Origin: an uncultured bacterium
GTDB taxonomy: Bacteria; Patescibacteriota; Minisyncoccia; Phycocordibacterales; CAWITU01
Direction of reading: 5' to 3'
Assembly (NCBI GenBank): GCA_963839205.1
Contig: CAWITU010000002.1
Coordinates: 772 to 64,771 of the forward strand
DNA: 64,000 nucleotides
Numbering within the stretch: the first letter of the stretch is position 1; every line of letters starts with the position of its first letter. The notes under the pieces were generated by a model, which had not been told where the DNA came from, searched no databases, and worked only from the letters and a program-made list of their open reading frames with translations. The position numbers were made by a program, and so were the translations under genes. Positions 1,590 to 63,851 of the stretch are shown here, in pieces.

Positions 1590-2303
1590 TTAGAGGCTTA
1601 AAATAAACTGCTCGAGAGCGCTTTGAAGTTCGTAGGCTCCACGATGGGCTTCGTGATAAATCTCAACTAATTTTGACGAAAGATTTCTGAGTTCTTTTTC
1701 AGAATAATTCTTTGAGAAACCTTTTGCTTTAGAGTACACAAAAGGTTTGAGCCCAGAGGCGGCGGCCGAATCGGCCGCCGCCGCCAAATTCATTGATTTA
1801 ACCTGCCAAAAAAGAGTACCGTGAATTTCTTCTGGTACTGATCCATTCTTCATTGCTTGAAGATATAGCATCCACAAATTTTTCTTATCTCTCTTCCCTA
1901 AGGCGTCAGACAATCCAAATATATTAAATTCCTTTTTTACTACTTCGTCTTTTTCAGACTCTTGTATTTTCTCAGATTTTTTTTCTATCAATTTCAATGA
2001 GTCCTTATCCAGTTTTTGTTCAATGAAGATAAATATATGCTCCGAGGAAGATATCTCGTCTAGCTTTGAAATAATTCTTTCTTTTGCTTCATCATTTTCA
2101 AAAACATGATCAAAAAGCACAATGTACTTTGCTTCAAAAAGACCTTTTCCTTCAATAAAATTATCTAGTTCTGCTTCATTCCAATTATCCGATTCAATTT
2201 TATAGAAAGAAGCATTTGGTTTTCTCTTCAAAAGACTGTCCTTAAGTGCAGTCGCTTTTTCTCTCGTTTTTTGTCGATCTTGTCCGTAAAAAAAATAAAT
2301 CAT
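1590..2303 (-). CDS. holA: DNA polymerase III delta subunit-like (short HolA)
   Basis: N-terminal IYFFYGQD start and FGLSDALGKRDKKNLWMLYLQAMKNGSVPEEIHGTLFWQVKSM resemble the HolA clamp-loader delta subunit. It overlaps the polA stop by 4 nt (operon). Confidence 0.6.
   Translation of the reverse strand: MIYFFYGQDRQKTREKATALKDSLLKRKPNASFYKIESDNWNEAELDNFIEGKGLFEAKYIVLFDHVFENDEAKERIISKLDEISSSEHIFIFIEQKLDKDSLKLIEKKSEKIQESEKDEVVKKEFNIFGLSDALGKRDKKNLWMLYLQAMKNGSVPEEIHGTLFWQVKSMNLAAAADSAAASGLKPFVYSKAKGFSKNYSEKELRNLSSKLVEIYHEAHRGAYELQSALEQFILSL
1758..1782. repeat. intragenic GC-only hairpin, 11-bp perfect stem, 3-nt loop (in holA)
   Basis: GGCGGCGGCCG-aat-CGGCCGCCGCC. It encodes the low-complexity insert AAAADSAAAS, using GCG on one arm and GCC on the other. 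Confidence 0.9.
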
Positions 2304-4702
2304 AGTTGTTTCATAACTTGCCAGCTTGGTCCAACTTTTGCTTCTGCTTTCATCACAATTCCTTCTGTCTCACTAAGCGGCACCACATCTTCCATTACTT
2401 TTTTAATTTTAGTAGCGATACTTTCTAATACATCATCTTGTACTTCATATAATAATTCATCATGAACCTGAAGTAGTGGATAAACTTTTTCCTCTAATTT
2501 TTCTTTAACCAAAAATTCGTCCACTTTAATCATGGCTAATTTAACTATGTCAGCCCCAGTCCCTTGGACTGGGGCGTTTATTGCCATTCTTTCAGCCATC
2601 GCTTTTATAAAAGGTAATTTCGATTTAAGACCCGGAAAATATCTTCTCCTACCAAATAATGTTTCGGTATATCCCCTTCTCATAGCCTCTCCTTTTACAT
2701 TATCCAAATATTCAGCAAGCCCAGAAAACGTTTTAAAGTAATCATCATAAAATTTTTGAGCAGTTGCTCTATCTGATCCCAAATTAGTACGCAAAGCATT
2801 AACTCCCATACCATAAATAATTCCAAAATTTATAACCTTAGCTTGTCTTCTCATTTCTTTATCAACCTTATCAAGTGGAACCCCAAAAACTTCAGAGGCA
2901 ACTGCCGTATGAATATCCTCGCCTTCTTTAAATATAGAAATTAGTTTTTTATCTTTCGAAAGAAAAGCGGCAATACGAAGTTCCATTTGAGAATAATCCA
3001 ATGATAAGAGCGAAAATCCTTTTTCGGCAATAAAAGCCTTACGAATATTTCGGCCAAGTTCACTTTTGATTGGAATATTTTGTAAATTTGGATTTTGTGA
3101 AGCCATTCGTCCGGTAGTGGAACCAGTTTGAATTAGAGTGGTATGAAGTCTCCCGTCTTTTGCGACGAGATCTGGAATTGAATCAATATAAGTAGTTAAA
3201 AGTTTTGAAAGCTCACGATATTTGAGTACTTCTTTGATTATTGGGTGAAGATCAGTCATCTTTTCTAACTCTGATTCTTTGGTTGATTTTGCGCCACCAC
3301 CAGTTTTCTTCTGGTTCTTAACCTTAAGCCCCATTTTTTCAAACAAAATTACTCCGAGCTGTTTTGGTGAAGAGACATTAAATTTCTCCCCGGACATCTC
3401 CCAAATCTTTTCTTCAATACTTGAAAGTTCCTTATGATATTCCTTGGAAAGCCTTTTCAGTTCTGCGGTATCTACCTTTATTCCCCTCTTTTCAATTTTT
3501 CCAATTACAGAAATCAGGGGTAATTCAATTTTTTCAAAAACCTTTTCCAAATCTCTTTTTTTAAGCTCGGCAAAAATAATTTCTGAGGCTTTAGTAAAGT
3601 CCTCAATCTTTGCAAAACTAGTTATGTCCTCTAGGGTCGGATTCGTTATTTCTGAATTAATAATCCAAAGAGCTACTGCTGTTTTTTTAAATTCTATTTC
3701 ATCAATTTTCTGTACTTCTTTTACAGATTCTTTCTCAAGCGAAAATTCTTTCTGACTAATCCCTTGGGCTTCAAAAAAAATCTGATCGAGTCTGGCCGAT
3801 AGGCTTCTAAAATCTAAGTCAGCGAAAAATTTTTTAACCTCGTCCTTTGAAAAAGTTTCTTTCCAAGTTTTTTCTGGTAAATCAAAATCAATTGGAGCGT
3901 CTCGACGAATGGTCGCAAGCATTTTAGAAAATTCCGCCTCTTCCTCACCATCTTGAAGTAATTTAATTATTCTATCTGTTAAACCTTCTTTTTTAAATTC
4001 ATCTGGATTCTTTTTCAAAATGTTGTACATACTTTCTATCGTCCCAAATTTTTGAAGAAGGGTTGATGCGGTCTTTTCACCAATCCCAGCAATGCCAATT
4101 ATGTTATCTGACGGGTCGCCACGTAGTCCTTTAAAATCAGGAAGTAGTTTTGGTGGAAAACCAAAACGATCAACAACCGCTTTTTCGTCATACATAACTG
4201 TGTCATTAATTCCCTTTTTCAAAGTGTAAGCTTTGACTCTATCGCCATCTACCAATTGAAGTGTGTCCATATCTCCGGACGCAATAATAATTTCAATATC
4301 ATTATTGTCTTTCAACTTTTCAACAATCGTTCCCAACATGTCGTCAGCCTCAAACCCTGGCTTGTCATACATTGGAATATTAAAAGATTTAAAAACATCT
4401 CTTGATTTAATTATTTGGGAAATAAGTTCCGGATCAGCCTTTTTTCTACCAGCTTTGTATTCAGCATAAGCCTCGTGCCTATATGTAGGTTCCGGTAAAT
4501 CATAACAAGCGGCTAAATAGTCTGGTTTCAAATCATGAATAATTCGAAGGAGCATGGAAGATAGCCCATATAAACCTCCGGTTGCTTCTCCTTTGCTTGA
4601 GACAAAATCAGGAAGGGCGTGATACGCCCGGTGAAGAATTGCATGAGCATCAAAAAGAATTAGTCTTTTTCTATTTGATTGTGATTTCTCTTTCTTTGTC
4701 AT
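2300..4702 (-). CDS. polA: DNA polymerase I (5'-3' exonuclease + polymerase domains)
   Basis: 800 aa. Contains LILFDAHAILHRAYHAL (5' nuclease), DYSQMELRIAA (motif A), RRQAKVINFGIIYG (motif B) and LQVHDELLYEV (motif C). Confidence 0.95.
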   Translation of the reverse strand: MTKKEKSQSNRKRLILFDAHAILHRAYHALPDFVSSKGEATGGLYGLSSMLLRIIHDLKPDYLAACYDLPEPTYRHEAYAEYKAGRKKADPELISQIIKSRDVFKSFNIPMYDKPGFEADDMLGTIVEKLKDNNDIEIIIASGDMDTLQLVDGDRVKAYTLKKGINDTVMYDEKAVVDRFGFPPKLLPDFKGLRGDPSDNIIGIAGIGEKTASTLLQKFGTIESMYNILKKNPDEFKKEGLTDRIIKLLQDGEEEAEFSKMLATIRRDAPIDFDLPEKTWKETFSKDEVKKFFADLDFRSLSARLDQIFFEAQGISQKEFSLEKESVKEVQKIDEIEFKKTAVALWIINSEITNPTLEDITSFAKIEDFTKASEIIFAELKKRDLEKVFEKIELPLISVIGKIEKRGIKVDTAELKRLSKEYHKELSSIEEKIWEMSGEKFNVSSPKQLGVILFEKMGLKVKNQKKTGGGAKSTKESELEKMTDLHPIIKEVLKYRELSKLLTTYIDSIPDLVAKDGRLHTTLIQTGSTTGRMASQNPNLQNIPIKSELGRNIRKAFIAEKGFSLLSLDYSQMELRIAAFLSKDKKLISIFKEGEDIHTAVASEVFGVPLDKVDKEMRRQAKVINFGIIYGMGVNALRTNLGSDRATAQKFYDDYFKTFSGLAEYLDNVKGEAMRRGYTETLFGRRRYFPGLKSKLPFIKAMAERMAINAPVQGTGADIVKLAMIKVDEFLVKEKLEEKVYPLLQVHDELLYEVQDDVLESIATKIKKVMEDVVPLSETEGIVMKAEAKVGPSWQVMKQL
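2543..2565. repeat. intragenic hairpin, 10-bp perfect stem, 3-nt loop (in polA)
   Basis: GCCCCAGTCC-ctt-GGACTGGGGC, overlying the conserved INAPVQGTGAD segment. Confidence 0.85.
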
Positions 4703-5130: not shown

Positions 5131-5169
5131 AAACAAAAAAGGCGCAGAATGAGTAAATCATTCTGCGCC
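5131..5169 (-). terminator. rho-independent terminator of the GC-rich cassette
   Basis: GGCGCAGAATGA-gtaaa-TCATTCTGCGCC (12 bp), followed on the minus strand by TTTTTTGTTT. Confidence 0.8.
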
Positions 5170-5189
5170 CCATAACATAATCGTCAGCG

Positions 5190-5753
5190 TTAGTGAGCCT
5201 GGTGCGAGTTCGCACTCCCGCCACGACTTCCACCACTAGAGTAACAGGTGGTGGTTGTCCTTGTCGGGCAATACGTCTGCCTCTGCTGAGTTGAGCAGTA
5301 CGTCTGCTGCCGTTGGGGAGTGTACTGTTGCCGATACCCCCCACGATTGTACCCACCACCAAAGATAAGCCAGATCGGCGGCAGACTGCAGTACGGCGTT
5401 CCCTGAGCCCAACTATCGTACCAAATCCTTCCAGATGGCTGGGGTTGGCAAGACTGACTACCTCCACTGACAACATTGCTGTTGTAGTTGTCATTATTAT
5501 TTACAACGTTTACCGCTGGCGATTCGGTAGATGCCGGTGTCTGTACGACAGGCTCAGGTGTCGGAGCAGGAGGCGTAGGCGGCTGAACAACAACTTGTTC
5601 CTCAACCAAATCCACCGGATTTCCGCAATCCGCTTTGTACCGCGGAACTAAATTTCCGTCTGGTCCGTACTCACAAGCCAACACAACATCCGGCTTGAAA
5701 CACATAACTCTGGCCTGATCCAGTTCCCGGACAATAGTTGTAAAACTTGGCAT
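5190..5753 (-). CDS. low-complexity Cys/Pro/Gly/Gln-rich hypothetical protein in a GC-rich island
   Basis: 187-aa ORF with a PTPPAPTPEP linker, an N-rich tract and a GGYNRGGYRQQY tail. There is no RBS before its ATG, and its frame is open upstream to 5846, so it may be the frameshifted continuation of 5795-6037. Confidence 0.45.
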   Translation of the reverse strand: MPSFTTIVRELDQARVMCFKPDVVLACEYGPDGNLVPRYKADCGNPVDLVEEQVVVQPPTPPAPTPEPVVQTPASTESPAVNVVNNNDNYNSNVVSGGSQSCQPQPSGRIWYDSWAQGTPYCSLPPIWLIFGGGYNRGGYRQQYTPQRQQTYCSTQQRQTYCPTRTTTTCYSSGGSRGGSANSHQAH

Positions 5754-8129: not shown

Positions 8130-9161
8130 ATGTCAAGCGATATAAAAAAAGTGGAACAAAAAGAAGGAATTACCCCTGACGAGGTTTTTCTTGATCAGAC
8201 CCTTCGCCCTTCCAAATGGGACGACTACATTGGTCAAAAAAATATTAAAGAAAACTTAAGAATTCTTTTGGGTGCTGCTATGGAGCGCAATCACCCACCG
8301 GAACACGTATTATTTTATGGGCCCCCAGGTCTCGGCAAAACAACGCTCGCCCACCTCATCGCCAAAGAAATATCTGCTCAAATAAAAGTTACTTCAGGGC
8401 CTGCAATTGAAAAAGTTGGAGACCTCGCCTCAATTCTTACCAATCTTTCAAAAGGAGACATTCTTTTTATTGATGAAATTCATAGACTTAACAAAACTAT
8501 TGAGGAAGTCCTCTACCCTGCTATGGAATCGGGTCAGCTTGATATTATTATTGGCAAAGGTCCATCCGCTAGAACGATCCAACTTGAGTTACCTTCGTTT
8601 ACTTTGATTGCGGCGACGACGAGGATTTCGCTTTTGTCGTCGCCGCTTAGATCCCGTTTTTCCGGCGGCGTCTTCCGACTGGAATTCTATACACCAAACG
8701 AAATTAAAGAAATTGTTAAGCGCTCCTCAAAAATATTAGGTGTTGAGATTCCGGAAGACGCCGCCTCCCTAATCGCCTCGCGCAGTCGTTTTACACCAAG
8801 AACTGCCAACTATCTCCTCAAACGAGTTCGCGACTTTGTTCAAATGAAGAAAGTTCCTCTAACTAAAGAAGCGGCAGATGAGGCTTTAAAACTTTTAAGC
8901 GTTGATTCTCTTGGTCTAACCTCGTCAGACAGAATAATTCTTGAAACCCTAATTAAGAAATTTGGTGGAGGGCCTGTAGGACTTAACACCCTTGCTTCGT
9001 CTCTATCAGAAGAGGAATCGACAATTGAGGAGTTTAATGAGCCATATCTGCTTCAATTAGGTCTTATCGAAAGGACACCACGAGGAAGATTGGCAACTTC
9101 CCTTGCCTACAAACACTTAGGGATTGAATTGCCCGAGAATTTGCAAGGAAAACTTCTTTAA
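8130..9161 (+). CDS. ruvB: Holliday junction branch migration helicase RuvB
   Basis: 343 aa with [12 protein letters not shown], Walker [16 protein letters not shown], and [15 protein letters not shown]. Confidence 0.95.
8610..8646. repeat. intragenic hairpin, 11-bp perfect GC-rich stem, 15-nt loop (in ruvB)
   Basis: GCGGCGACGAC...GTCGTCGCCGC, encoding the conserved [12 protein letters not shown]. Confidence 0.85.
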
Positions 9162-10763: not shown

Positions 10764-11943
10764 CCCTAATCTTGAGAAATCGTTTCTTACCGACTCTTAA
10801 ATTTAAATCTGACACAACCGAGAAATTCCTATCAAGGATTTTCTCGGTTGTTTCTATATTTTCTATTGCCCCTTCTTTAATGAGGCGAGCAAAGTCTGAT
10901 TTTGATGCAGTAACAGAATTTTCAAGAAGAACATCTGAGAGCATCATTCCTTTTTTAACTTGAACTTCTTCGGCGGTATCTGGAATACCGCCTTTCTTAA
11001 AGGCGGCTTCAAATTGGGAAGCCGCCTCTTCTGCTTTCTCTTTGTTGTGGTAAATAGAAACGATTTCAAGAGCTAATCTTTCTTTAATTTTCTTTGGATT
11101 CTCCCCTTTTTTAATTTCTTCTTCAATCTTTTTAATTTCTTCAATTGAAATATCTGTGCAAAGCAAAAAATACTTAATAATTAATTCATCTTTTATTGAA
11201 AGTACTTTTCCAAACATATCTAACGGCTCATCATCAATATTAATAACATTCCCCCAACTTGTAGACATTTTTCTACCATCAGTTCCTTCGAGCATTGAGG
11301 TGACTAAGATATCCTGCTCGTCCATTCCATAAAACTTCTGAATTGTTCTCCCAGCCTTCACGTTAAAGAGCTGATCAAAGCCCCCAATTTCAACATCGGC
11401 CTTAACAGCCACAGAATCATACCCCTGCATAAGTGGATACATAAATTCTAGAAGAGAAACCTCTTCTCCATTTTCAAGACGTGTTTTAAAATTTCTTCTA
11501 CTAGACATCTGCAAAACCGAGAAACTGTCGGCTAGTTCGGTTACCTCTTTTAACGTTAATTTTGAAAGCCAAACACTATTGTAAACAATTTCCGCTTTTG
11601 AAATATCAATAATCTTACCGAGATGCTTTTCATAATCTTTTAAATTTTTCTCAATATCCTCTACAGAAAGGGTTGGGCGTTTTTCTAATTTATCAGAGGC
11701 ATCTCCAATCTGGGCAGTGAAGTCTCCAACTATTAAAACAATGTGGTGTCCTAAATCTTGAAATTGTCTTAATTTTTTTAGAGGAATTGCTCTTCCAATA
11801 TGAATTTTTGGTCCTGTTGGGTCAATGCCGAATTTAATTCGGAGTTTTTTCCCACTCAAAAGTTTTTCTTCTAGTGTTTTTTTAACTATTATTTCTTCTA
11901 CACCACGATTCAGGAGTTCAGAGATTTTTTCCTTCATCCACAT
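10756..11943 (-). CDS. tyrS: tyrosine--tRNA ligase
   Basis: 395 aa class I aaRS. HIGRAI (HIGH-like), KMSTS (KMSKS), and a C-terminal S4-like domain (SKSDFARLIKEGAI). Confidence 0.9.
   Translation of the reverse strand: MWMKEKISELLNRGVEEIIVKKTLEEKLLSGKKLRIKFGIDPTGPKIHIGRAIPLKKLRQFQDLGHHIVLIVGDFTAQIGDASDKLEKRPTLSVEDIEKNLKDYEKHLGKIIDISKAEIVYNSVWLSKLTLKEVTELADSFSVLQMSSRRNFKTRLENGEEVSLLEFMYPLMQGYDSVAVKADVEIGGFDQLFNVKAGRTIQKFYGMDEQDILVTSMLEGTDGRKMSTSWGNVINIDDEPLDMFGKVLSIKDELIIKYFLLCTDISIEEIKKIEEEIKKGENPKKIKERLALEIVSIYHNKEKAEEAASQFEAAFKKGGIPDTAEEVQVKKGMMLSDVLLENSVTASKSDFARLIKEGAIENIETTEKILDRNFSVVSDLNLRVGKKRFLKIRVI
10988..11026. repeat. two overlapping intragenic hairpins sharing a GGCGG core (in tyrS)
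   Basis: CCGCCTTT-ctt-AAAGGCGG (10988-11006) and GGCGGCTTC-aaattgg-GAAGCCGCC (11002-11026). These pairings are mutually exclusive. Confidence 0.8.
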
Positions 11944-11974: not shown

Positions 11975-14188
11975 ATGAAAAAAGCCGTTATATTTCTAGA
12001 CAATTTGTCAATAAAAATCGTAAAAGAGGTGTCACGCTTCTTTAGACGATTAAAACATAAAAGCTTTAGAAATCAGGTTATAAAAGAAACTGCCTGGGTT
12101 CTTTTGGCTCTGTTCTTCTTTTTGGCTGGATTTATTACAATCTGGGCGGTAAATCTAAAAATCCCTGATCTCCAGTCTTTTGACGAGACTCAGACTGTTG
12201 GTCAATCAACCAAAATATATGACTCAACTGGCCAAGTACTTCTATATAATTTAAATCAGGACACCAAACGAACAGTTGTTCCGTTTGAACAAATTTCTCC
12301 GAATGTTAAAGAGGCCACTATAGCTATTGAGGATAGAAATTTCTATCAAAATCCAGGAATAGATATTATGGCGATAGTGAGATCAATGTTTACAGACATC
12401 ACAACCCTACATTTTAGTGAGGGGGGATCAACCATTACACAGCAAGTTGTAAAAAATCTTCTCCTGACCCAAGACAAAACAATTACTAGAAAATTAAAAG
12501 AAGTTGTTTTGTCTCTCAAACTTGGGCAAGAACTTAGTAAAGACCAGATTCTTAATATGTACTTAAATAGTGCACCTTATGGTGGAAATATTTATGGAGT
12601 TGAAGAAGCTAGTGAAGAATATTTTGGTATTTCAGCAAATAATTTAGATATCGCCCAAGCTGCCTATCTTGCCGCTCTACCTAATGCCCCAACCTACTAT
12701 TCCCCGTATGGAGCCCATGTGAGTGACCTACAAACTAGAAAAAATTTGGTTCTACAAGCAATGCTCCAAACTAATTACATTACTCAAGATCAATACAATA
12801 GCGCTGTTGCTGAACAGGTTACTTTTTTACCTCAAGTTACAAATAGCATAAAGGCTCCCCATTTTGTAATGTACATCAAACAATATCTTGAGGAAAAATA
12901 TGGTGACGATGTTATTAATAAAGGTTTGAAAGTTATTACCACTCTTGATTACCCTCTTCAAGAAGAAATTGAAAGTGTTGCAAAACCGTACGCTCTCCAA
13001 AACGAAAAAGAATTCAACGCCAGCAACATCGCCGCGGTCGCCATTGACCCCACAAACGGCCAGATTCGAGCCATGGTAGGTTCTCGCGATTTTTTTGACA
13101 CATCTATTGATGGAGAGTTCAATGTCGCGACCGCTTACCGCCAACCAGGTTCTTCATTTAAACCAATCGTTTATTCAGAAGCTTTTATAAAAGGTTACAC
13201 TCCAGACACTGTTGTTTTTGACCTTCCAACCCAATTCTCAACAACTTGTTCCCCAAATGGAACAATCCTTGTTCCTGGCGGAAGCTGTTACGCCCCACAA
13301 AATGATGATGGCACCTTCGCTGGCCCTATTACTTTTAGAGACGCTTTGGCTCAATCAAGAAACGTCCCAGCTATTCAAGTTCTTTATTTGGCCGGTATTC
13401 AAGATTCACTTAATTTGGCTAAAAGCATGGGTATTACGAGTTTAAGTACTGCTGATCATTATGGACTCACCCTAGTTCTTGGAGGTGGTGAAGTTTCGCT
13501 TCTCCAATTGACCAATGCCTATGGGACTTTCGCTACTGGTGGTTACACAAATCCAACTAGCGGTATTCTTGAGGTAACCGATAACCAAGGAAATATTCTT
13601 GAACAGTTCGCAACTTCAACTGACCAAGTAATTCCAGCGCAGGTGGCATATCAAATTTCTGACATATTGTCTGACAACGTTGCTCGAACGCCGGCTTTCG
13701 GTGCAAATTCTCCACTTTATTTTCCTGAAAGAGATGTAGCTGTTAAAACAGGTACCACGAACGATTACCGTGACGCATGGGTCATTGGATACACTCCGCA
13801 TATTGTTATCGGCGCATGGGCAGGTAACAACGATAACACCCCTATGGCCAAACAGATCTCCCGATATTTAATTGTTCCGTTCTGGAATCAAATAATGAGT
13901 TTCGAATTGCCTAGAGTTCCAGTTGAAACATTTCCAAAACCTCTTCCAATAGATCCTAATACCAAATCAGAATTAAAGGGTCTTTGGGAAGGCTATGACG
14001 TGAATGGAAATCCGAATGTTCACTCAATTTTGTATTGGGTTGATAAGAGTGACCCAACAGGACTACCACCAGCAAACCCAGCTGACGACCCACAATTTAA
14101 TTTATGGGAGTATCCTATTAGACTCTGGCTTCAAACTCACACCGTCCCTTCTGTTAACTTACCTAACACTTCTTCAACCCCCATCTAA
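11975..14188 (+). CDS. class A penicillin-binding protein (glycosyltransferase + transpeptidase)
   Basis: 737 aa. N-terminal TM helix, GT51 motifs EDRNFYQNPGID and GGSTITQQ, and transpeptidase motifs SSFKP, SRN, KTGTT. Confidence 0.9.
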   Translation: MKKAVIFLDNLSIKIVKEVSRFFRRLKHKSFRNQVIKETAWVLLALFFFLAGFITIWAVNLKIPDLQSFDETQTVGQSTKIYDSTGQVLLYNLNQDTKRTVVPFEQISPNVKEATIAIEDRNFYQNPGIDIMAIVRSMFTDITTLHFSEGGSTITQQVVKNLLLTQDKTITRKLKEVVLSLKLGQELSKDQILNMYLNSAPYGGNIYGVEEASEEYFGISANNLDIAQAAYLAALPNAPTYYSPYGAHVSDLQTRKNLVLQAMLQTNYITQDQYNSAVAEQVTFLPQVTNSIKAPHFVMYIKQYLEEKYGDDVINKGLKVITTLDYPLQEEIESVAKPYALQNEKEFNASNIAAVAIDPTNGQIRAMVGSRDFFDTSIDGEFNVATAYRQPGSSFKPIVYSEAFIKGYTPDTVVFDLPTQFSTTCSPNGTILVPGGSCYAPQNDDGTFAGPITFRDALAQSRNVPAIQVLYLAGIQDSLNLAKSMGITSLSTADHYGLTLVLGGGEVSLLQLTNAYGTFATGGYTNPTSGILEVTDNQGNILEQFATSTDQVIPAQVAYQISDILSDNVARTPAFGANSPLYFPERDVAVKTGTTNDYRDAWVIGYTPHIVIGAWAGNNDNTPMAKQISRYLIVPFWNQIMSFELPRVPVETFPKPLPIDPNTKSELKGLWEGYDVNGNPNVHSILYWVDKSDPTGLPPANPADDPQFNLWEYPIRLWLQTHTVPSVNLPNTSSTPI

Positions 14189-14190
14189 CC

Positions 14191-14445
14191 TTAGAGGATA
14201 TCTTCTACCACCAAATCTTTTATCTGATCTTTAATTTTATCTAAAATAACGTCCTTTCTAAAGAGGACTTCGTTTTTTTCAATCGGAACTATCACTAATA
14301 TTATCTTTCTATTCCTCACTGCAACCGCTTCTGGTTCTAAAATAATTCCAGTAGTTTCCTCAATAATTTTAGAAATAGTTCTTAAATTATCTTTTGGATT
14401 TTTAAATTTTTTAAATTTCTCTAAGAGATCTCCAATTTTTCTCAT
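14191..14445 (-). CDS. small conserved protein downstream of dnaN (DUF721/DciA-like, tentative)
   Basis: 84-aa ORF starting 2 nt after the dnaN stop. The position and beta-alpha pattern (VAVRNRKIILVIVPIEKNEVLF) resemble DUF721 proteins. Assignment is by context. Confidence 0.45.
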   Translation of the reverse strand: MRKIGDLLEKFKKFKNPKDNLRTISKIIEETTGIILEPEAVAVRNRKIILVIVPIEKNEVLFRKDVILDKIKDQIKDLVVEDIL

Positions 14446-14446: not shown

Positions 14447-15550
14447 TTATTTATTCATCGGCATCACGATATACGAAAAGGTGTTGTCTGAAACCCCGCG
14501 AATTAGAAGTGGTTTGTTTAAGCCGTTAAATGAAAGTGAGAGGCTGTCAGAGTTAATTGATTGAAAAACATCAGCGATATTTTTGTAGTTGAAATTAATA
14601 TCAACATCTTCACCAGTTAAACTTCCTGGTACTAGGTTTGAACTTTCACCGACATCGGCGTTTTTGGTCTTAATTTCAAAACTCTTTTCTTTTGGATGAA
14701 CTTGAATAGTGATTTTATTAAATTTGTCAGCAAATACATTAGCAATTTTTAAAGTATCAATAAAATCTTGCTTTAAAATAATGGCTTCAGTTTCAGCCCC
14801 TTTTGGTATAAGTGGTTTGTAATCTGGGAAAACCCCATCAATAACCCTTGAAGTTATATAAGTATTTTTAAATGCAAAAGCGATTTGGTTTTTATCAATT
14901 AAAACATTAACCTCATCCCCTATCGCCCCCTCAATAACTCTAACAATCTCAACAGCGTTCTTTGAAGGAATTAAAATAGGTTGAAAATCCAGACTTTCTT
15001 TTGTTTTTACTTTTTTCTCTGCTAGTCTGAATGCATCGGTAGCAACAAAGACTAAATTATTTTCGGCTGAATAAACATAAATACTGGACAATTCTGGTTT
15101 CAGACTAGAGATTGAGGCACTGTACCAAACTGATTTAAAACCACTTGCCAAATCTGTCGCTGGAAGAGTTATTGGGGTAGGAGAATCTGTTTTAGGAATA
15201 AGAGGAAAATCTTGGTGAGGTAGACACTTAATCAAAGTGCTATGACTCTTTGTTGAGACGTTTATGTTTCCTGAAACTTCTTGAAGAGTAATATTTCCAT
15301 CACCTTTCATGTTTGAAATAAAACCATTTAGAAAAGAGGCTGGGACCGCCAAAACCCCCTCCTTTTCAACCTTAGCCACAATACTGATTTCAATCCCCAC
15401 ATCAAGGTTTGTTGCTCTAATTACCAGAGCTCCTTTTTTTGCTTCTAAGTACAAACATTTTAGAATTGGGGTGTTGTTATTTTTTGAAGCAATTTTCTCT
15501 GCATAACTCACAGCTTTTCCTATTTCTTCTTTTCTACATTCGAGTTTCAT
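14447..15550 (-). CDS. dnaN: DNA polymerase III beta sliding clamp
   Basis: 367 aa immediately downstream of dnaA. Three-domain length, with typical PILKCLYLEA and a MPMNK C-terminus. Confidence 0.9.
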   Translation of the reverse strand: MKLECRKEEIGKAVSYAEKIASKNNNTPILKCLYLEAKKGALVIRATNLDVGIEISIVAKVEKEGVLAVPASFLNGFISNMKGDGNITLQEVSGNINVSTKSHSTLIKCLPHQDFPLIPKTDSPTPITLPATDLASGFKSVWYSASISSLKPELSSIYVYSAENNLVFVATDAFRLAEKKVKTKESLDFQPILIPSKNAVEIVRVIEGAIGDEVNVLIDKNQIAFAFKNTYITSRVIDGVFPDYKPLIPKGAETEAIILKQDFIDTLKIANVFADKFNKITIQVHPKEKSFEIKTKNADVGESSNLVPGSLTGEDVDINFNYKNIADVFQSINSDSLSLSFNGLNKPLLIRGVSDNTFSYIVMPMNK

Positions 15551-15756
15551 ATTTGTGTGTATCTTCTTATATATAAAATTATTATTACTATTATGGTTGT
15601 GGATATGTGGAAATCTTTTTCTGTGAACTTATATATAGGTGTCTCAAGAAGTTATTTTTTTGACTATGTTGGTAATTTCCTCACTTACATCCCACACATT
15701 TTTATTTATTTTATTTCTCTACATTCTATCAACACCACACACACCAATTATCCACA
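15551..15756. other. candidate oriC (dnaA-dnaN intergenic) with DnaA boxes and an AT-rich unwinding region
   Basis: Perfect box TTATCCACA at 15748-15756, TGTGGATAT at 15598-15606, TGTGGAAAT at 15606-15614, and an AT-only stretch at 15565-15595. A further box, TGTGGATAG, lies at 17179-17187 in the dnaA-rpmH spacer. Confidence 0.6.
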
Positions 15757-17109
15757 TCATATCAATGCCCTAATTTGATTAAGTTCTTGAAGTAATCTTC
15801 CATTAACCTTTAATTCATTTCTTATTTTTTCACAAGAATGAATAACCGTTGTGTGGTCACGGTCCCCCAACTTATGACCAATTGAAGGGTAAGAAACATT
15901 AAAATCTTCTCGAAGAATATACATAGCAAGCTGTCTTGGCTTCACAACTTCTTTACGTCTACTCTTATCATAGATAATTCCCTCTTCAAGGTTATAAAAA
16001 TTAGCGACAATTTTAACTAAGTTTTCAACCGAAATATTCTTTACTGGCTTTGCAGCATTCTTCATCATATTTTTAATATCTGTAATGTCCACTACTCGAC
16101 CACGTAATTGGACTTGGCACATTATTGAGTTAAGAATCCCCTCTAATTCTCTTATATTGCCATCTATGGAGGACGCTAAGTAATCTATGACCTGATTCTC
16201 CAATTCTAGATTATTAAGTCTGGCTTTTGATTTTAGGATAGCTATGCGTGATTCTAGATCTGGTTTAGGAATATCAACAATCATACCGGCCACAAATCTT
16301 GATTTGAGTCTTTCCTCAAGTCCGGGAATATAATTTGGGTGTTTGTCTGAAGAAAAGATGATTTGTTTATTGTTTTCATATAAAACATTAAAAAGATGAA
16401 ACAATTCTTCCTGAGTTTTTTCTGTATTTGATAAAAATTGGATATCGTCCATGATTAACACATCATACTTTCGGTATTTCTCTTTAAAATTATTAGTTTT
16501 GGTCATGCCCATGTTAACTGCGTTGATGTAATCTTGGGTAAATCTCTCACAGGTAACATAAAATACCCTCTTTTCCCTATTATTAGCTTTAATATGATTA
16601 CCAACTGCTTGAATTAAATGAGTTTTGCCTCGGCCAGTGTCCCCATAAATAAAAAGTGGATTGTAAACTACAGGTTTCTTGATAATTGCTTGGGACGCGG
16701 CGTAAGCCAACTCATTGAAAGGACCAACAACAAAATTTTCAAAGGTATATCGTGGGTTTAGGTTGTCTTCTTTATTGATGAGGTCTCCTAGAGGTAACTC
16801 TTTGTTCAACTGTTCCAATGGTTTTGATAGTGGTGTTGGAATTTTCTTTCTATCACCATCATCAGTCTTAGCAATGATGTAATCAACAGATCTAACACCT
16901 TCAGAAAGGGTGCGAAGTGATTTTAAAATGAATTTATGATACTTTTCCCTAACCCAATCTCTAACAAAAGGGTTTGGGACTGAGATAACAACCATTCCCT
17001 CATCATTCTTAACCAATGCAGTTTCACTAAACCACATATTTAGGGCAGTCTTTGAAAAATTAATTTCAACTTCCAGTAAGACATTATCCCAAAGAGTTTT
17101 ACTATCCAT
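15757..17109 (-). CDS. dnaA: chromosomal replication initiator DnaA
   Basis: 450 aa. Walker A GDTGRGKTHL, box VII, and the C-terminal DNA-binding helix GDRDHTTVIHSCEKI. Confidence 0.95.
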   Translation of the reverse strand: MDSKTLWDNVLLEVEINFSKTALNMWFSETALVKNDEGMVVISVPNPFVRDWVREKYHKFILKSLRTLSEGVRSVDYIIAKTDDGDRKKIPTPLSKPLEQLNKELPLGDLINKEDNLNPRYTFENFVVGPFNELAYAASQAIIKKPVVYNPLFIYGDTGRGKTHLIQAVGNHIKANNREKRVFYVTCERFTQDYINAVNMGMTKTNNFKEKYRKYDVLIMDDIQFLSNTEKTQEELFHLFNVLYENNKQIIFSSDKHPNYIPGLEERLKSRFVAGMIVDIPKPDLESRIAILKSKARLNNLELENQVIDYLASSIDGNIRELEGILNSIMCQVQLRGRVVDITDIKNMMKNAAKPVKNISVENLVKIVANFYNLEEGIIYDKSRRKEVVKPRQLAMYILREDFNVSYPSIGHKLGDRDHTTVIHSCEKIRNELKVNGRLLQELNQIRALI

Positions 17110-17231
17110 GATGAGGGTATTATATACTCGCTTTGTTTTTGTAAAACTTGCGCAAAGTTTACAACTATGTTGATAAGTTGTGGATAGTTATTAACGTTGG
17201 CACTTATTATTGTTTGTGTTATAGTCTTCCC

Positions 17232-17366: not shown

Positions 17367-17367
17367 G

Positions 17368-19718: not shown

Positions 19719-19732
19719 GATTATATTTTACA

Positions 19733-21170: not shown

Positions 21171-21191
21171 TAGAAGAAGTTTTTGACTTGG

Positions 21192-22216: not shown

Positions 22217-22223
22217 GTCTTTA

Positions 22224-48190: not shown

Positions 48191-48700
48191 ATGATGACTA
48201 ATGTTCAGCAGACTATCGCTGACCGTCTCAGACTCGTCCCAAGTTACAGGAGGTTGGTTATCAAGCCGACTGATGGTAAGGAGACGATTAGTGAAGCTAG
48301 GGAAGTATTTGGTGATATTGATCGCGATTTCCTCGGGTGCGATGTTGAGTCAAAACCAACGGCTGAAATGCCAGCGCGGGTTTATGAAATGACCAGAAAC
48401 GGTAGGTTTGGCTATTTCTTTTGCGGATTCAGAAGGAAATTGGATGATCTATGTTTTACTCAACCGCAGATCAAATGTTTTGTTGCAGATTATTCCGACA
48501 TGCTCCATCCGAGCGGGCACAAAACTTGGTTCTTATTCAAGTCCAAAGGGGAACTCCTTGTTGCGCGCGTGACTTGGCTGACTAGTGGTCAGAAAACAAT
48601 AAAGGTCAATCGACTGTTGTCTGAAGTGGTCTGGCCGTGCGCCAATTACCGCTCGCGTCTTGTAGTTCCGGAACTATCCAAATTAGTACTTAGTTCCTAA
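48191..48700 (+). CDS. hypothetical protein in a GC-richer cassette
   Basis: ORF 48185-48700 (ATG at 48191), visibly GC-richer than its neighbours, with its own terminator. No family recognised. Confidence 0.5.
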   Translation: MMTNVQQTIADRLRLVPSYRRLVIKPTDGKETISEAREVFGDIDRDFLGCDVESKPTAEMPARVYEMTRNGRFGYFFCGFRRKLDDLCFTQPQIKCFVADYSDMLHPSGHKTWFLFKSKGELLVARVTWLTSGQKTIKVNRLLSEVVWPCANYRSRLVVPELSKLVLSS

Positions 48701-48718
48701 GTTGAGTTCGTCATTATT

Positions 48719-48750
48719 CCCTGACCATCCGAAATTTCGGAAGGTCAGGG
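48719..48750 (+). terminator. rho-independent terminator
   Basis: CCCTGACC-a-TCCGAAATTTCGGA-a-GGTCAGGG, followed by GATTTTATTTTT. Confidence 0.85.
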
Positions 48751-48785
48751 GATTTTATTTTTATACAAAATTTATTTAAACTAAA

Positions 48786-49982
48786 TTAGTAGTGACCAGG
48801 GTTAGCTTTAATAAGTTCCTGGGCGAGGGGAATACCGGGGCCATTTTCGAAATCGGTTTTGAAAATGGCCCCGGCGCCCGTCACAATATCATTAAGACTT
48901 TCATTAATATTTGCTTGAAGACTTCGATTTATATATGAAGTTGAAATTGCATCTAAACTTCTTCCCCCCGTTGAGGAGTCGTCCATTGATGTGGAAACAA
49001 TACCGATGAGTTGATTGTTTGAATCAGTGATTGCTCCGCCGGATGAGCCTTTTTGCGCTACGTTTGATAGTGGCAAGAGAAATTAGATCAGAACTATTAT
49101 CTGAATTAAAACTATATATATTCTCAACTTTTCCGGTTTCCGAAATTAGATTTAGATTATTTAATACTTGGTCGCCAGAAGAATTTCCAGCAGGATAAGC
49201 CGTTGCCTTGGCTTGGGTTAAAGAAGTTTGGTCTTGGGTATTTATAGTAATAATTTTTGGAGCCACAGTTTTATTTTCACCAGTGATCTCCAAAAGTCCG
49301 TAGTCATATTCTCCGGTACCTTCTGGATTGTTTTGCGAAATAGCAGTTAGGTTATTTTTAATCCATTGTGGTGGCTCATAAAGAACTTTTAATGAATAAA
49401 GAGTTTTGGCAGGGGAGCCGACTCTGCCAACACAGCTTCTATTTGGATCATTTAAATAATCATCAATCAGAACATATTGAGCGACGTGAGCATTAGTCAA
49501 AATGACATCTTGGGAAATAATAACACCGCTGGCAGTAACCATGGTTATATTATTTCCGACTCTAGTGGTGCAAAAAATATTAACGACAGAATCTGATGGG
49601 GTTGTGGCATTTTGGCTTGGAGGAAGGGCAACATTAGTACTTTGTTTTAGGTTTGTTAAGCCAACTGGTGCGCTCGGTTGAGTTGGTTGGGTGGAGTTGC
49701 TGTTGTTCGAAGATTGGTAGAAACAGTTTTTAGTGGAACTTGTTTAAAATCCGGTGCGACAATTTTCAAATAGGGAAGCGTGGCATTTTGATTCGCAGTA
49801 ACTTGTGGTTTTGCTTCTGGTTGAAATCCAATTACATCTGATAATCCAATTTGAGTATTACTTGAAGTTGCTTGTGGAGGTTTCGATTAATAGAACTTGT
49901 CGTACTTGAACTGAATAGGGAAGAGAGCAAGAAAAATAATGAGAAGACGGTATTAATGACAGATACGGTGGCTGTAGGTCAT
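48786..49982 (-). pseudogene. membrane-anchored trypsin-like (S1/HtrA-type) serine protease, multiply frameshifted
   Basis: His motif ILTNAHV (ORF 49024-49542) and Ser motif GSSGGA (ORF 48786-49076) are in different frames. The N-terminal parts (TM segment, VVNIFCTTRVGNN) upstream of 49542 need further frame changes. The start is tentatively ATG 49982. Confidence 0.65.
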
Positions 49983-55624: not shown

Positions 55625-55652
55625 GGCCGGCTGCGAAACTACGCAGCCGGCC
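55625..55652. terminator. bidirectional terminator between pyrC and doxX
   Basis: GGCCGGCTGCG-aaacta-CGCAGCCGGCC, flanked by AAAT and TTTTT. Confidence 0.85.
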
Positions 55653-55663
55653 TTTTTGTTTGT

Positions 55664-56071
55664 CTAAAGAGGAAGATCAAAAGCGTAATATCCCGGACCG
55701 CTTAATGTTAGAGAAATTAAGATTACTAAAAGAATAAAGTATAAAACTCTCTCATGTTCAAGTGTTGTTGGGTGTTGAAGTTTAACAATAAAGGCGACCG
55801 CCATGATGACTGCGAGAATTAATGCAGTAGGTTGAGTAAGAAGTCCAACGACTAGAAGCACTCCACCAATTAATTCGATAATTCCCAAAGAGATAGCAAA
55901 GAAAAGACCTTGTCTAAATCCAATTGATTCAAAAAATAGTTTCTTGTGAGTTCTTTTGGTGGTTAATTTCTGATAACCATAAAAAACAAACAAACATCCA
56001 ATCGCCACTCTTAGTAAAAGTGGAGCAAAGAAACGAAAATTTAAAAGATAGGGAATGGTTGAAAGTAACAT
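55664..56071 (-). CDS. DoxX family membrane protein
   Basis: 135 aa, four TM helices. LLRVAIGCLFVFYGYQKL is typical of DoxX. Confidence 0.75.
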   Translation of the reverse strand: MLLSTIPYLLNFRFFAPLLLRVAIGCLFVFYGYQKLTTKRTHKKLFFESIGFRQGLFFAISLGIIELIGGVLLVVGLLTQPTALILAVIMAVAFIVKLQHPTTLEHERVLYFILLVILISLTLSGPGYYAFDLPL

Positions 56072-57500: not shown

Positions 57501-58816
57501 TATTTTTTAAGTTCCAAATATTTTTTTAGTTCCTCTTTGGCAACTTCAGCGTCACTCCAAATAGTTCGAGTATTGTTTGGTCCCATGATGTATGGGTCGG
57601 TTCCTTTGCCTGTTATGATTACCGTATCACCAGTTTTAGCCTTAGATACAGCCCTCGCAATCGCTTCGCGTCTCTTCATAATTATTTCATATCGTTTCTC
57701 AGTGATTCCCTTAGCCATATCTGCCAGTATGTTCTCGGGTTTTTCATCGTAAGGGTCCTCGTCAGTCAGAATTATTTCGTCACAGTAGGTGTCAGCAATT
57801 TTACCCATCTCAGGTCTTTTCCATTTGTCGCGGCCGCCGCCTGTGTTGCCTAGAACACAGACGCGGCGGCCGGTCTTGAATACTTCATAAATTTTTTTAA
57901 GAGAGTCTGGGGTGTGAGCGTAATCAACAATTACTCTGAAATCTTGTTTCAAAAATAATGGATCAGTTTCATCAAGTGTTATCTTTTGTACTCGGCCAAG
58001 GATTCCTTTAAATTTTTCTAAGGCATTTTTGATTGTATCTAAGTGCACACCTTCTTGCGTCTTCGTATAAGTAATTGCTGCAAGAATATTTGAGATATTA
58101 AAAATCCCTGGCAAGTTTGTACTTATTTTTTCTCCAAGGTAAGTTATTTCAGAACCTTCAGTACCCAAGACAAATGGTTCGGCTTCAGCTAACGAATATG
58201 TTAATTTTTCAAGACCATCAATCTTCAGGAATCTTTCACTTTCTTTATCATCCGCATTAGCTACCAAAATCTTTCTTGGTTTATTAGATTTTGCTAATGC
58301 TAGAGCTATGCTTAGTTTAGCCCTAACGTATTTTTCGTATGAGCCATGCGATTCAATATGTTCGGGTGAAAGGTTGGTGAAAAGCAGAGCGTCAGAATCA
58401 ATAAATCGATGTCGGTATTGTTTTGCTCCCTCGGAAGTCATTTCTAAAATTGCATAGTCACATTTTGCAGTCACTGCATCTCTTAAAAATTTCTGAACAA
58501 AAAATCTTCCTGGAATCGTCATTTTGTATTTATTCGCTCTTGACTCATCCCCAATTTTAAATCGAACAGTTCCTGCGAGTGACGTTTTGTACCCAGCTTC
58601 TTCCAGGATGGCATTTACTACTTCAACTGTTGAGGACTTTCCTTTGGTACCTGTGACCATTACAACTTTAATATTTCGTGAAGGAAAGTTATAAATGACT
58701 GCCCCTGAAAGTGCTAATAGAAAGTGGTAGGAAGGTTGAGCAAAGGCAAAAATATTTCTCGGAATATATTTTTTTATTGTTCGAAGAACATTGTCCGCAC
58801 TCATATTATTTTCCAA
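57500..58816 (-). CDS. murE: Mur ligase family protein (MurE-like)
   Basis: VTGTKGKSST P-loop, IVDYAHTPDSL, VLGNTGGGRDKWKRPEMG, and LTDEDPYDE (DNPR-like). Confidence 0.7.
   Translation of the reverse strand: MENNMSADNVLRTIKKYIPRNIFAFAQPSYHFLLALSGAVIYNFPSRNIKVVMVTGTKGKSSTVEVVNAILEEAGYKTSLAGTVRFKIGDESRANKYKMTIPGRFFVQKFLRDAVTAKCDYAILEMTSEGAKQYRHRFIDSDALLFTNLSPEHIESHGSYEKYVRAKLSIALALAKSNKPRKILVANADDKESERFLKIDGLEKLTYSLAEAEPFVLGTEGSEITYLGEKISTNLPGIFNISNILAAITYTKTQEGVHLDTIKNALEKFKGILGRVQKITLDETDPLFLKQDFRVIVDYAHTPDSLKKIYEVFKTGRRVCVLGNTGGGRDKWKRPEMGKIADTYCDEIILTDEDPYDEKPENILADMAKGITEKRYEIIMKRREAIARAVSKAKTGDTVIITGKGTDPYIMGPNNTRTIWSDAEVAKEELKKYLELKK
57831..57872. repeat. intragenic hairpin, 10+7 bp stem with 2-nt bulge, 6-nt loop (murE-like)
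   Basis: CGGCCGCCGC-CTGTGTT-gcctag-AACACAG-ac-GCGGCGGCCG, encoding RRVCVLGNTGGGRD. Confidence 0.9.
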
Positions 58817-63110: not shown

Positions 63111-63113
63111 ATT

Positions 63114-63851
63114 ATGAAATGCATCGGTATTGATTATGGTAGTAAGAATGTTGGGATTGCGGTGGGGGACAGCGAGCACGGCCTAGCTTTTCCTAAGGCC
63201 GTGCTCGCTAACTCCTCGCGCCTTCTTGCGGAAATCAAAGAAATCGTGACGCAAGAAGGCGCGGGAAAAATCATCCTCGGAGAATCTCAAGATTTTAAAG
63301 GAGTGGACAATCCGATAATGAAGAAAATTCTCTCTTTTAAGAAAGACCTTGAGGATGATTTAAAGATTCCAGTTATTCTTCACCCAGAATTTATGACTTC
63401 AGCTGAGGCAGAAAGATTGCAGGGCAAAAATGACATGATTGATGCTTCAGCTGCCGCACTAATTCTCAAAAGTTTTTTTGATAATAAAAAGAATGAAATC
63501 GTCAAAAGTGAAAAACCCGAAGTCACTTTTGACGATTTTTCTAAAATCCAAATTAAGGTTGGTGAAATTTTGTCAGTCGAGAAGGTTCCAGCAACTGATA
63601 AACTTTTAAAACTGTCTGTTAATTTTAATGAGGCATCACCTCGCCAAATCATTTCTGGTATCGCCCTTCATTTTTCTGACCCAGCGGTGCTTGTTGGCCA
63701 AAAATGTTTTTTCGTAACTAATTTACAGTCTAGAACTATTCGAGGGTATGAAAGCAACGGTATGCTCTTCGCAGTTGGTGGAAAGGATGATATCCCATTC
63801 TCATTAATTAAAGCAGGTCCAGAAATTCCCCCAGGAACTCCCGCAAATTAA
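63114..63851 (+). CDS. ruvX: fusion protein: YqgF/RuvX nuclease domain + C-terminal tRNA-binding (Trbp111/CsaA-type OB) domain
   Basis: The N-terminus MKCIGIDYGSKNVGIAVGD...LPEFMTSAEA is YqgF-like. The C-terminus FSKIQIKVGEILSVEKVPATDKLLKLSVNFNE..RQIISGIALHF..LVGQKCFFVTNLQSRTIRGYESNGMLFA is the tRNA_bind fold. Confidence 0.8.
   Translation: MKCIGIDYGSKNVGIAVGDSEHGLAFPKAVLANSSRLLAEIKEIVTQEGAGKIILGESQDFKGVDNPIMKKILSFKKDLEDDLKIPVILHPEFMTSAEAERLQGKNDMIDASAAALILKSFFDNKKNEIVKSEKPEVTFDDFSKIQIKVGEILSVEKVPATDKLLKLSVNFNEASPRQIISGIALHFSDPAVLVGQKCFFVTNLQSRTIRGYESNGMLFAVGGKDDIPFSLIKAGPEIPPGTPAN
63171..63209. repeat. intragenic hairpin, 14-bp perfect stem, 11-nt loop (ruvX)
   Basis: AGCGAGCACGGCCT-agcttttccta-AGGCCGTGCTCGCT. 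Confidence 0.95.
63217..63263. repeat. intragenic hairpin, 14-bp perfect stem, 19-nt loop (ruvX)
   Basis: CGCGCCTTCTTGCG ... CGCAAGAAGGCGCG, extendable by a G-U and a C-G pair. Confidence 0.95.

Follow-up and report, generated by a model that had tools for sequence, protein, structure and literature searches.

The DNA analysed here is a 64-kb stretch of contig CAWITU010000002.1, called the window throughout, and its protein-coding genes carry a series of short, perfect and mostly GC-rich hairpins that are the subject of this work. The sample examined is this one window of the genome. Its GC content is 37.8%, and a scan with one genome per species places the lineage in the Patescibacteria, within the Paceibacteria/Nomurabacteria group, where the best relatives of its ComM protein show 57-66% identity; among 5.8 billion proteins, the next closest to the window's ComM is 69% identical. 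Gene identities were checked with Pfam, and the gene names of an initial annotation of this DNA proved essentially right. The window encodes holA, polA, tsaE, a PilB-type ATPase, ruvB, yebC, ruvC, tyrS and a class A penicillin-binding protein, followed by dnaN, dnaA, rnpA and yidC, which identify it as bacterial chromosome. Further genes are pcrA, a LysM-M23 peptidase, comM, dksA, pnp, a NYN-domain protein, rpsO, a Xer-type recombinase and a CCA-adding enzyme, as well as RNase Y, clpP, fpg, a Mur ligase, ruvA and a fusion of ruvX with a tRNA_bind domain.

For every hairpin site listed in the initial annotation, the longest perfect Watson-Crick stem was computed, and the stems of the whole window were enumerated exhaustively. 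Twelve of the 16 listed hairpins lie where they had been placed, with stems of 9-14 bp (those of holA, ruvB, tyrS, pnp and the Mur ligase gene, both in pcrA, both in ruvX, and the comM hairpins starting at 36828, 37003 and 37692), two are real and displaced by about 10 nt, and two are absent: at the yidC site (17859-17895) the fold is imperfect, at -12 kcal/mol, and its perfect stem measures just 5 bp, and no stem is present at comM 37349/37424. Stem lengths of up to 17 bp had been announced, and the longest perfect GC-rich stem measures 14 bp. The list had missed three hairpins, located at comM 37997-38034 (10 bp), tyrS 10814-10851 (12 bp) and ruvX 63496-63538 (16 bp, AT-rich).

Many of the hairpins coincide with conserved protein motifs, as had been claimed for PolA, RuvB, PcrA, PNPase and the Mur ligase. 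In holA, which encodes the DNA polymerase III delta subunit, the hairpin at 1758-1782 (minus strand) consists of an 11-bp stem of 100% GC with a 3-nt loop, encodes AAAADSAAA, and folds as RNA at -27.6 kcal/mol (z -4.5). The polA hairpin (2553-2575, minus; previously put at 2543-2565), with a 10-bp stem and a 3-nt loop, covers NAPVQGTGAD of the motif INAPVQGTGAD, and that of ruvB (8610-8646, plus) has an 11-bp perfect stem on a conserved RuvB motif. Two hairpins lie in tyrS on the minus strand, one in the C-terminal region at 10814-10851, with a 12-bp perfect stem of 42% GC and 20 nt at 90% complementarity, and one at 11001-11027, with a 10-bp stem and a 7-nt loop. The pcrA gene carries a tandem pair, also on the minus strand, in which the hairpin on the Walker A motif ILAGAGAGKT (35146-35171, 11-bp stem, 4-nt loop) is separated by 4 nt from a second one with a 12-bp stem (35176-35206), and together they fold at -48.6 kcal/mol (z -9.6). 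An alteration of the PcrA Walker A sequence had been suggested, and the comparison does not support it, as AGAGAGKT is the family consensus.

The minus-strand comM gene is the richest, with five hairpins: at 36828-36872 (residues 407-421, 13-bp stem), at 37003-37039 on LIATMNPCPCGNQ (11-bp stem, 45% GC), at 37529-37559 in the inter-domain linker EARPPMVAAPP, at 37692-37723 (residues 123-133, 10-bp stem) and at 37997-38034 (residues 19-32, 10-bp stem). The linker hairpin, formerly placed at 37539-37569, has a 14-bp stem of 86% GC closed by a 3-nt loop and folds at -32.6 kcal/mol (z -7.6). On the same strand, the pnp hairpin (41286-41316) forms a 13-bp stem with a 5-nt loop on SGRIVDRTIRP, and the hairpin of the Mur ligase gene (57831-57872), on TGRRVCVLGNTGGGR with the motif GNTGGGRDKW, has a 10-bp stem of 100% GC, a 2-nt bulge and 7 further base pairs. 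The plus-strand ruvX gene holds a second tandem pair, at 63171-63209 (residues 20-32) and 63217-63263 (residues 35-50), each with a 14-bp stem, which are 7 nt apart and jointly fold at -62 kcal/mol (z -8.7). The ruvX reading frame continues in frame into a tRNA_bind (CsaA/EMAP-like) domain (63114-63851), and the linker between the two domains contains the AT-rich 16-bp perfect stem at 63496-63538 (plus), which may be a former intergenic element. As RNA, the hairpins fold at -18 to -33 kcal/mol with z values of -3.5 to -9.6, and their stems are also stable as folds of single-stranded DNA.

The count of such stems far exceeds chance, as had been asserted on first inspection. Stems were counted inside open reading frames (ORFs) when they were perfect, at least 10 bp long, at least 55% GC and closed by loops of 3-60 nt, and the null expectation came from 100 dinucleotide shuffles and 100 within-gene synonymous-codon shuffles. 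One stem, at 5141-5169, was removed from the count: it lies 20 nt past the stop codon of the gene at 5190-5753 and is followed by a T-tract on the strand of that gene, so that it is reclassified as an ordinary intergenic terminator and the ORF overlapping it as spurious. The 14 stems that remain (15 before the removal) compare with 0.16 in the synonymous and 0.14 in the dinucleotide null, and the five stems of at least 13 bp with 0.00 expected; overall, the excess over chance is about 100-fold. The mismatch spectrum of the GC-rich stems shows 13 perfect stems vs 0.6 expected and 4 with one mismatch vs 0.35, while stems with two or more mismatches remain at the null level; the perfection of the hairpins is all-or-none, with no excess of imperfect stems.

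An independent Logan assembly contig (L081, from run ERR10755936) matches window positions 34530-39471 with 1 mismatch in 4,942 nt (99.98% identity) and contains every pcrA and comM hairpin of the window. Because the hairpins preserve both reading frames and conserved residues, unlike random artefacts, and because this second assembly reproduces them, an artefact of assembly or amplification is rejected. Inserted mobile palindromic elements, such as Rickettsia palindromic elements (RPEs), MITEs (miniature inverted-repeat transposable elements) or elements resembling repetitive extragenic palindromes (REPs), were likewise rejected, since there is no length change relative to orthologues and no consensus across the hairpins. 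As had been stated before, the hairpins form no sequence family; the longest strings that they have in common are 10-11 nt long and of the (GGC)n type, and no short GC motif is universal among them. A shared recognition or methylation motif was discarded as well, GGCC being found in 10 of 23 hairpins (4.8 expected) and GCSGC in 8 of 23 (2.8 expected), an excess that is attributed to strings of alanine and glycine codons. These GC-rich codon strings are all that speaks for chance, compositional bias, artefact or mobile elements as the origin of the hairpins; with about 0.2 stems in shuffled sequences against the number observed, such an origin is hardly credible and, as far as the analysis allows, already refuted. 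Two 10-nt strings do recur, TTGCCACAGG in the comM hairpins 37003-37039 and 37692-37723 and GGCCGAATCG in the holA (1758-1782) and pnp (41286-41316) hairpins; both lie slightly above expectation and may be due to chance.

Comparison with related genomes, whose loci are designated here by L numbers, indicates how the hairpins are built. In codon alignments of comM, pnp and pcrA with 25-81 relatives (the pcrA alignment including 18), sequences are of equal length through every hairpin, without any insertion. The clearest case is pnp, where the peptide SGRIVDRTIRPLF is identical in L008, L017 and L038, which have no hairpin there. Codon positions 1 and 2 of this peptide are already complementary (Gly/Pro, Arg/Arg, Ile/Ile and Val/Thr), and in the window only, all five wobble pairs are complementary too, so that a 13-bp perfect stem arises with zero amino-acid change. 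The stem on the PcrA Walker A motif (35146-35171) is likewise purely synonymous relative to the family consensus. A partial palindrome with complementary codon positions 1 and 2 is present in relatives at the pnp site, the pcrA Walker A site and comM residues 351-363, and is not evident at comM 37529 or comM 36828. At the comM linker (37529-37559), relatives are Lys-rich and AT-rich at the same length, and at comM residues 407-421 (36828-36872) both arms depart from the family consensus, at variable residues. Taken together, the alignments suggest that the hairpins sit on quasi-palindromes imposed by the protein sequence, mostly completed by synonymous changes at wobble positions.

Some residues have nevertheless been replaced. 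At comM A354T (37003-37039), an alanine invariant in the relatives has become a threonine, whose ACA codon pairs with the TGT codon of a cysteine, and at pcrA V31A (35176-35206) a valine invariant in 18 of 18 relatives has become an alanine, although a purely synonymous route to pairing existed in both cases. Changes at positions conserved to at least 90% are not in excess in the arms (3/36 vs 46/692 elsewhere), so that excess amino-acid damage, the signature of blind overwriting, was not significant at conserved sites; over all positions the excess is modest (46% in arms vs 33.5%, p = 0.03). The GC content at third codon positions (GC3) is 0.77 in the arms, 0.33 in the loops, 0.40 in the 30-nt flanks and 0.30 over all coding sequences (CDSs); GC enrichment is confined to the paired bases, and the claim that unusual synonymous choices are the main source of the stems is upheld. 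All codon pairing phases are in use (5/4/6), and loops range from 3 to 22 nt. Approximately 151 CDS sites could form a GC-rich 12-bp stem by synonymous choice alone, and six of them (about 4%) do, which means that the process is far from saturated. There is thus no regularity of the kind that a cis-element would have: phases are mixed, loops variable, motifs lacking and available sites sparsely used.

The window's hairpins have no counterparts at orthologous positions. The comM, pcrA and pnp sites were compared in 81 relatives (57-69% ComM identity), none of which carries a hairpin at any of them, the syntenic locus L082 with 68% identity in ComM and 76% in PNPase included. The density of GC-rich perfect stems is 0.282 per kb of CDS in the window vs 0.018 per kb over 1,034 kb of long ORFs from 81 related loci, roughly a 15-fold difference. 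A different comM hairpin, with a perfect 12-bp coding stem at the peptide SAERLGLSAR, is found in five relatives, namely L005 (11406-11432), L051 (11412-11438), L057 (11406-11432) and, at the same codons, L012 and L033. The window lacks a hairpin at this site, and 11 other genomes encode the identical peptide without the stem. Carriers and non-carriers are interspersed in a clade of 82-89% protein identity in which synonymous sites are saturated. The carriers differ among themselves by complementary wobble pairs, L005 and L012 by four double changes. In pair counting, 17 cells were changed on both sides vs 8.4 +/- 2.8 after shuffling, a value reached by 0 of 500 shuffles, and the covariation score was reached by 1 of 500, although both values can be inflated as the sequences are related. 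Wobble pairs per genome are bimodal at this site, with 4/4 in five genomes (0.17 expected), 3/4 in one and random-looking values in ten.

By this distribution the window's hairpins are lineage-specific and dynamic, and a hairpin of the same kind exists in relatives. The initial annotation had proposed that they should count as incidental if orthologues showed neither positional conservation nor covariation. Positional conservation is indeed absent in the 25-81 relatives aligned, and yet the hairpins are not merely incidental: some force acts on pairing itself, because GC3 is raised in paired bases alone and because the coding hairpin of the relatives is kept by compensatory changes.

Two other palindromes were observed in the related loci. 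L082 has its own 13-bp GC-rich perfect hairpin (L082:7111-7146) in the orthologue of a 305-residue protein of the window (38537-39454), where the window has none, and the palindrome CCAACTTGGGTGCGGAGCACCCAAGTTGG recurs with variants in long ORFs at L035:13918-13940, 14143-14177 and 14413-14441 and at L077:5095-5123. The latter is possibly a coding palindromic unit present in several copies, or else a small mobile element.

The pairing pattern within the window treats both DNA strands alike. Among about 165 stem pairs there is not one G-U pair, the folding energy of sense minus antisense averages -0.4 kcal/mol, and each of the two strands, sense and antisense, has 6 stems that include G-U pairs, all of them extensions of Watson-Crick cores. 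In the stem flanks of the sense strand, G-U combinations outnumber A-C combinations by 13 to 6, and at the relatives' SAERLGLSAR site by 6 to 3, neither difference being significant. An asymmetry in G-U pairs, which would be the signature of selection at the RNA level, is therefore absent within the stems and weak in the flanks. The features by which conserved cis-regulatory RNA structures are known, namely positional conservation, G-U pairs and strand specificity, were not found in the window's hairpins, and covariation was seen for the relatives' hairpin only. A cause in selection for RNA structure inside ORFs, as originally put forward, is not specifically supported by this pattern, and the lack of G-U pairs, the strand symmetry and the all-or-none perfection fit a templated process at the DNA level at least as well. 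Thermophily as a cause of GC-rich stems was rejected, since the GC content of the tRNAs is 0.555 vs 0.541 +/- 0.042 in relatives. Replication orientation was also rejected, as 10 of 15 hairpins would be head-on if the origin lies near 15.6-17.2 kb, vs about 63% of CDS length, without enrichment.

Among known systems, the window's hairpins appear to resemble most the coding palindromes of Nematomorpha mitochondria, whose authors argue for active conversion from arm to arm, with template switching as a candidate, and for elements that are possibly non-functional and self-preserving or 'parasitic' (2019, PMC6649704). In both systems, perfect inverted repeats lie in functional genes, both arms code for conserved protein, and length does not change. 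Identity is 'binary' in both, repeats being perfect or absent without an excess of imperfect ones, positions are scattered and are gained and lost between related lineages, and the degeneracy of the code is exploited for pairing, which is maintained by paired changes. Unlike the Nematomorpha palindromes, those of the window belong to a bacterial chromosome of the candidate phyla radiation (CPR; Paceibacteria) and not to an animal mitochondrion, have arms of 10-16 bp and not of up to 284 bp, are strongly GC-enriched in an AT-rich genome, and use all codon phases and not a single favoured one.

A second parallel is the correction of quasi-palindromes by template switching during replication, which Ripley reportedly described in 1982. 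Quasi-palindrome mutations 'universally perfect the palindromic sequence' by templating, at rates that shift by orders of magnitude with trans-acting factors (PMC6357072, Lovett lab). The same logic has been proposed to explain why perfect inverted repeats are enriched and conserved in E. coli (PMC5941160) and how RNA hairpins arise and persist (PMC8794818), and coding regions of S. cerevisiae have been treated as well (PMC8604942). As with the window's hairpins, the outcome is a perfected inverted repeat and the pattern is strand-symmetric. The correction acts at the DNA level and needs a prior partial palindrome; one step can yield apparent compensatory double changes, and lineages can differ because trans-acting factors set the rate. 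Unlike the situation in the window, it is described as single mutation events or as a modest genome-wide enrichment, mainly in non-coding DNA. An enrichment of about 100-fold in GC-rich perfect stems on housekeeping motifs is undescribed for it, and a GC bias lies outside the known mechanism.

Other systems are more distant. RPEs and intragenic MITEs are also hairpin-forming palindromes that are tolerated in protein genes of a reduced genome, but RPEs are mobile, 100-150 bp long, share a consensus, add residues as in-frame insertions and decay over time, whereas the window's hairpins are perfect, add no residues and have no consensus. GC-rich stems of 10-14 bp are found in intrinsic (Rho-independent) terminators and in REP elements too, and the window's own intergenic terminators look different from its coding hairpins by the tail alone, whereas the coding hairpins have no T-tract, are located within ORFs on conserved motifs and do not recur as copies. 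Conserved RNA structures of coding regions (of the Meyer and Miklos type, cited in PMC6649704) also pair through synonymous sites, but they are conserved in position, imperfect and contain G-U pairs, while the hairpins described here are lineage-specific, perfect and free of G-U. Full-text searches brought up no paper that joins Patescibacteria with coding inverted repeats or hairpins, the work on 'coding palindromes' found in this way is that on Nematomorpha and the RPE papers, and such coding hairpins go unmentioned in a survey from 2026 that covers the inverted repeats of 118,019 genomes. Described here are short, GC-rich coding palindromes in the chromosome of a CPR bacterium, at about 15 times the density of its relatives.

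The best explanation, which is held tentatively, is a lineage-specific rise in templated arm-to-arm correction of DNA, filtered by hairpin stability and protein function. The amino-acid sequence would force partial complementarity at codon positions 1 and 2 (Gly/Pro, Arg/Arg, Ile/Ile, Ala/Gly or Ala), and the free wobble positions, together with some tolerant residues, would have been made exactly complementary in this lineage. One arm of the quasi-palindrome may template the other, through intramolecular template switching where a 3' end has stalled or through repair that the hairpin directs, and such copying, being strand-symmetric, would perfect the repeat and then maintain its perfection. 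Only stems that fold stably, which in a 38% GC genome would be GC-rich ones, are expected to enter this cycle and remain in it, purifying selection on the protein would decide which products survive, and no function of the hairpin would be required. This reading draws on the non-randomness, the lack of insertions, the pre-existing quasi-palindromes, the strand-symmetric Watson-Crick pairing, the all-or-none identity and the patchy distribution with its compensatory double changes, and also on the replacements at the invariant sites comM A354T and pcrA V31A despite synonymous routes, on the missing cis-element regularity and on the published precedents named above. Both the templated mechanism itself and the role of the stability filter as the cause of the GC bias are what we infer from these patterns.

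Several points weigh against this explanation. Template switching alone leaves the GC bias of the arms, compared with that of loops and CDSs, unexplained, and the GC-rich comM EARPPMVAAPP and holA AAAADSAAA hairpins stand where relatives are AT-rich, so that a GC-biased repair step, selection for stability, or a restriction to quasi-palindromes that are GC-rich enough to fold must be added. Damage at conserved positions is no commoner in the arms than elsewhere, which fits a construction driven by selection equally well. The clustering of hairpins (five in comM, tandem pairs in pcrA and ruvX) and the over-representation of DNA-metabolism genes (6/14 vs 3/~32), both of them post hoc observations, are not predicted by pure mutation. 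Multi-nucleotide events in one arm were not directly observed, because the nearest relative has a ComM identity of 67-69% and synonymous sites are saturated, and the explanation gives no reason for the difference between this lineage and its relatives. The hairpins could have a templated origin and also be retained by selection.

The strongest competitor, a serious one although regarded as less likely, is selection for very stable mRNA hairpins, which would, for instance, block 3'-to-5' decay by PNPase, protect the ends left by RNase Y cleavage, or make transcription or translation pause, and which evolution would have placed where the protein sequence made them cheapest. Its main support is that the GC enrichment falls exactly on paired bases, wobble positions included, and it gains from the match in stem size and GC content with the genome's own intrinsic terminators, from the mostly synonymous construction without excess damage to conserved residues, from the clustering in particular genes, from the covariation at the relatives' comM site, from the weak excess of G-U over A-C in sense-strand flanks, and from the presence of RNase Y and PNPase genes in the window. 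The strict Watson-Crick pairing without sense/antisense asymmetry and the lack of positional conservation in 81 relatives count against it, as does the all-or-none perfection, since a balance of mutation and selection would yield a spectrum of imperfect stems. Neither the inconsistent positions within genes, with loops of up to 22 nt, nor the replacement of invariant residues where synonymous pairing was available, nor the use of about 4% of the available sites agrees well with it. Terminators of antisense (or sense) transcription placed inside genes are a very improbable alternative. A terminator scan flags the hairpins at 2553, 11001, 35176 and 37529 on the strand opposite the gene, and antisense tails are T-rich at 5 of 15 hairpins, but the background in these A-rich coding strands is 18% (p = 0.125), and the other 10 hairpins lack such a tail. 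On the sense strand, 2 of 15 tails are T-rich vs a background of 11%, which agrees with the earlier statement that no U-tract follows the hairpins; intrinsic terminators were thus rejected, as tails do not exceed the compositional background and all hairpins lie inside ORFs. By comparison, most intergenic GC-rich hairpins have a T-tract, and the window's intergenic terminators are found at 5141, 44067, 54230, 55625 and 62132.

Strand symmetry, strict Watson-Crick pairing and stable single-stranded DNA folds would suit functional elements of the DNA as well, that is, hairpins or cruciforms that a resolvase, helicase or nucleoid protein would recognise by their structure, perhaps with a feedback on repair and recombination genes. 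Hairpins occur in 6 of 14 DNA-metabolism genes (holA, polA, ruvB, pcrA, comM and ruvX) vs 3 of about 32 other genes outside the island described below (tyrS, pnp and the Mur ligase gene), but this count by gene class is post hoc, small, and taken from a single window rich in such genes, and dnaA, dnaN, ruvA, ruvC, fpg and xerC have no hairpins. Moreover, the hairpins share no motif and are not conserved in relatives, and stems of 10-14 bp are short for the extrusion of cruciforms from duplex DNA, so that this possibility is judged quite improbable. A bolder reading, also thought improbable, takes the hairpins as functional cis-elements of a lineage-specific system: a structure-specific factor binding RNA or DNA would read stable, sequence-independent stems in holA, polA, ruvB, pcrA, comM and ruvX, which would amount to a motif-free post-transcriptional or DNA-structural regulon over replication, recombination and competence genes. 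In a less radical reading, the hairpins would be the first self-maintaining 'selfish' coding palindromes of bacteria, driven by hairpin-directed, GC-biased conversion.

Whatever their cause, the hairpins illustrate that a bacterial chromosome of the free-living type can gather perfect hairpins on universally conserved motifs (the Walker A motif, the active-site region of PolA and the core of PNPase) while the proteins remain unchanged, at a cost that is borne almost wholly by wobble positions. If templated correction is responsible, the window would be a natural experiment on the power of templated mutation and hairpin stability over synonymous sites, 'conserved structure plus covariation' in coding regions need not imply function, and the Nematomorpha phenomenon would extend to bacteria, where abundant genomes would allow the responsible replication or repair factor to be found by comparing gene repertoires. 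If the hairpins are selected, they would constitute a motif-free layer of control through mRNA or DNA structure in CPR bacteria, whose gene regulation is barely known. In work on these genomes, such stems have practical consequences for the polymerase chain reaction, for sequencing coverage and heterologous expression, and for evolutionary models based on codons.

The region at 18391-32500 forms an island with a pilin of a type IV secretion system (20421-21170), a TraG P-loop fragment (22711-23379) and numerous short ORFs that overlap, start with TTG or GTG and have no Pfam match, and it looks like a degraded conjugative element. No hairpins had been noticed in the 18.4-32.5 kb island; it does contain zero GC-rich hairpins despite about 30 synonymous opportunities, and the hairpin-free span in fact covers 11.0-32.7 kb. 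The putative origin neighbourhood (14447-18410) has dnaN and dnaA on the minus strand and rpmH (approximately 17233-17366), rnpA and yidC on the plus strand, with matches to the DnaA box at 15598, 15748, 17168 and 17179. If the origin sits there, replication would run head-on against about 63% of the CDS length in the window, an unusual share.

Two genes are split by frameshifts into two ORFs each, namely pcrA (33363-35290; 513 + 129 residues) and the gene of the CCA-adding enzyme (45184-46648; 206 + 278 residues). Both are single ORFs in relatives, whose pcrA of about 640 residues aligns end to end with the joined halves; the splits are either assembly indels or real pseudogenes, and neither break adjoins a GC hairpin. 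Two structures lie in the intergenic region 48700-49024, a near-perfect palindrome of 23 nt at 48716-48753 and, at 48835-48874, a GC-rich hairpin of 14 bp that lacks a T-tract; neither of them matches Rfam, and the Rfam scan of the window returned six tRNAs only. Finally, the intergenic terminators at 5139-5185 (minus) and 55625-55667 (plus) have different stems and share the same 13-nt tail, TTTTTGTTTGTCT.

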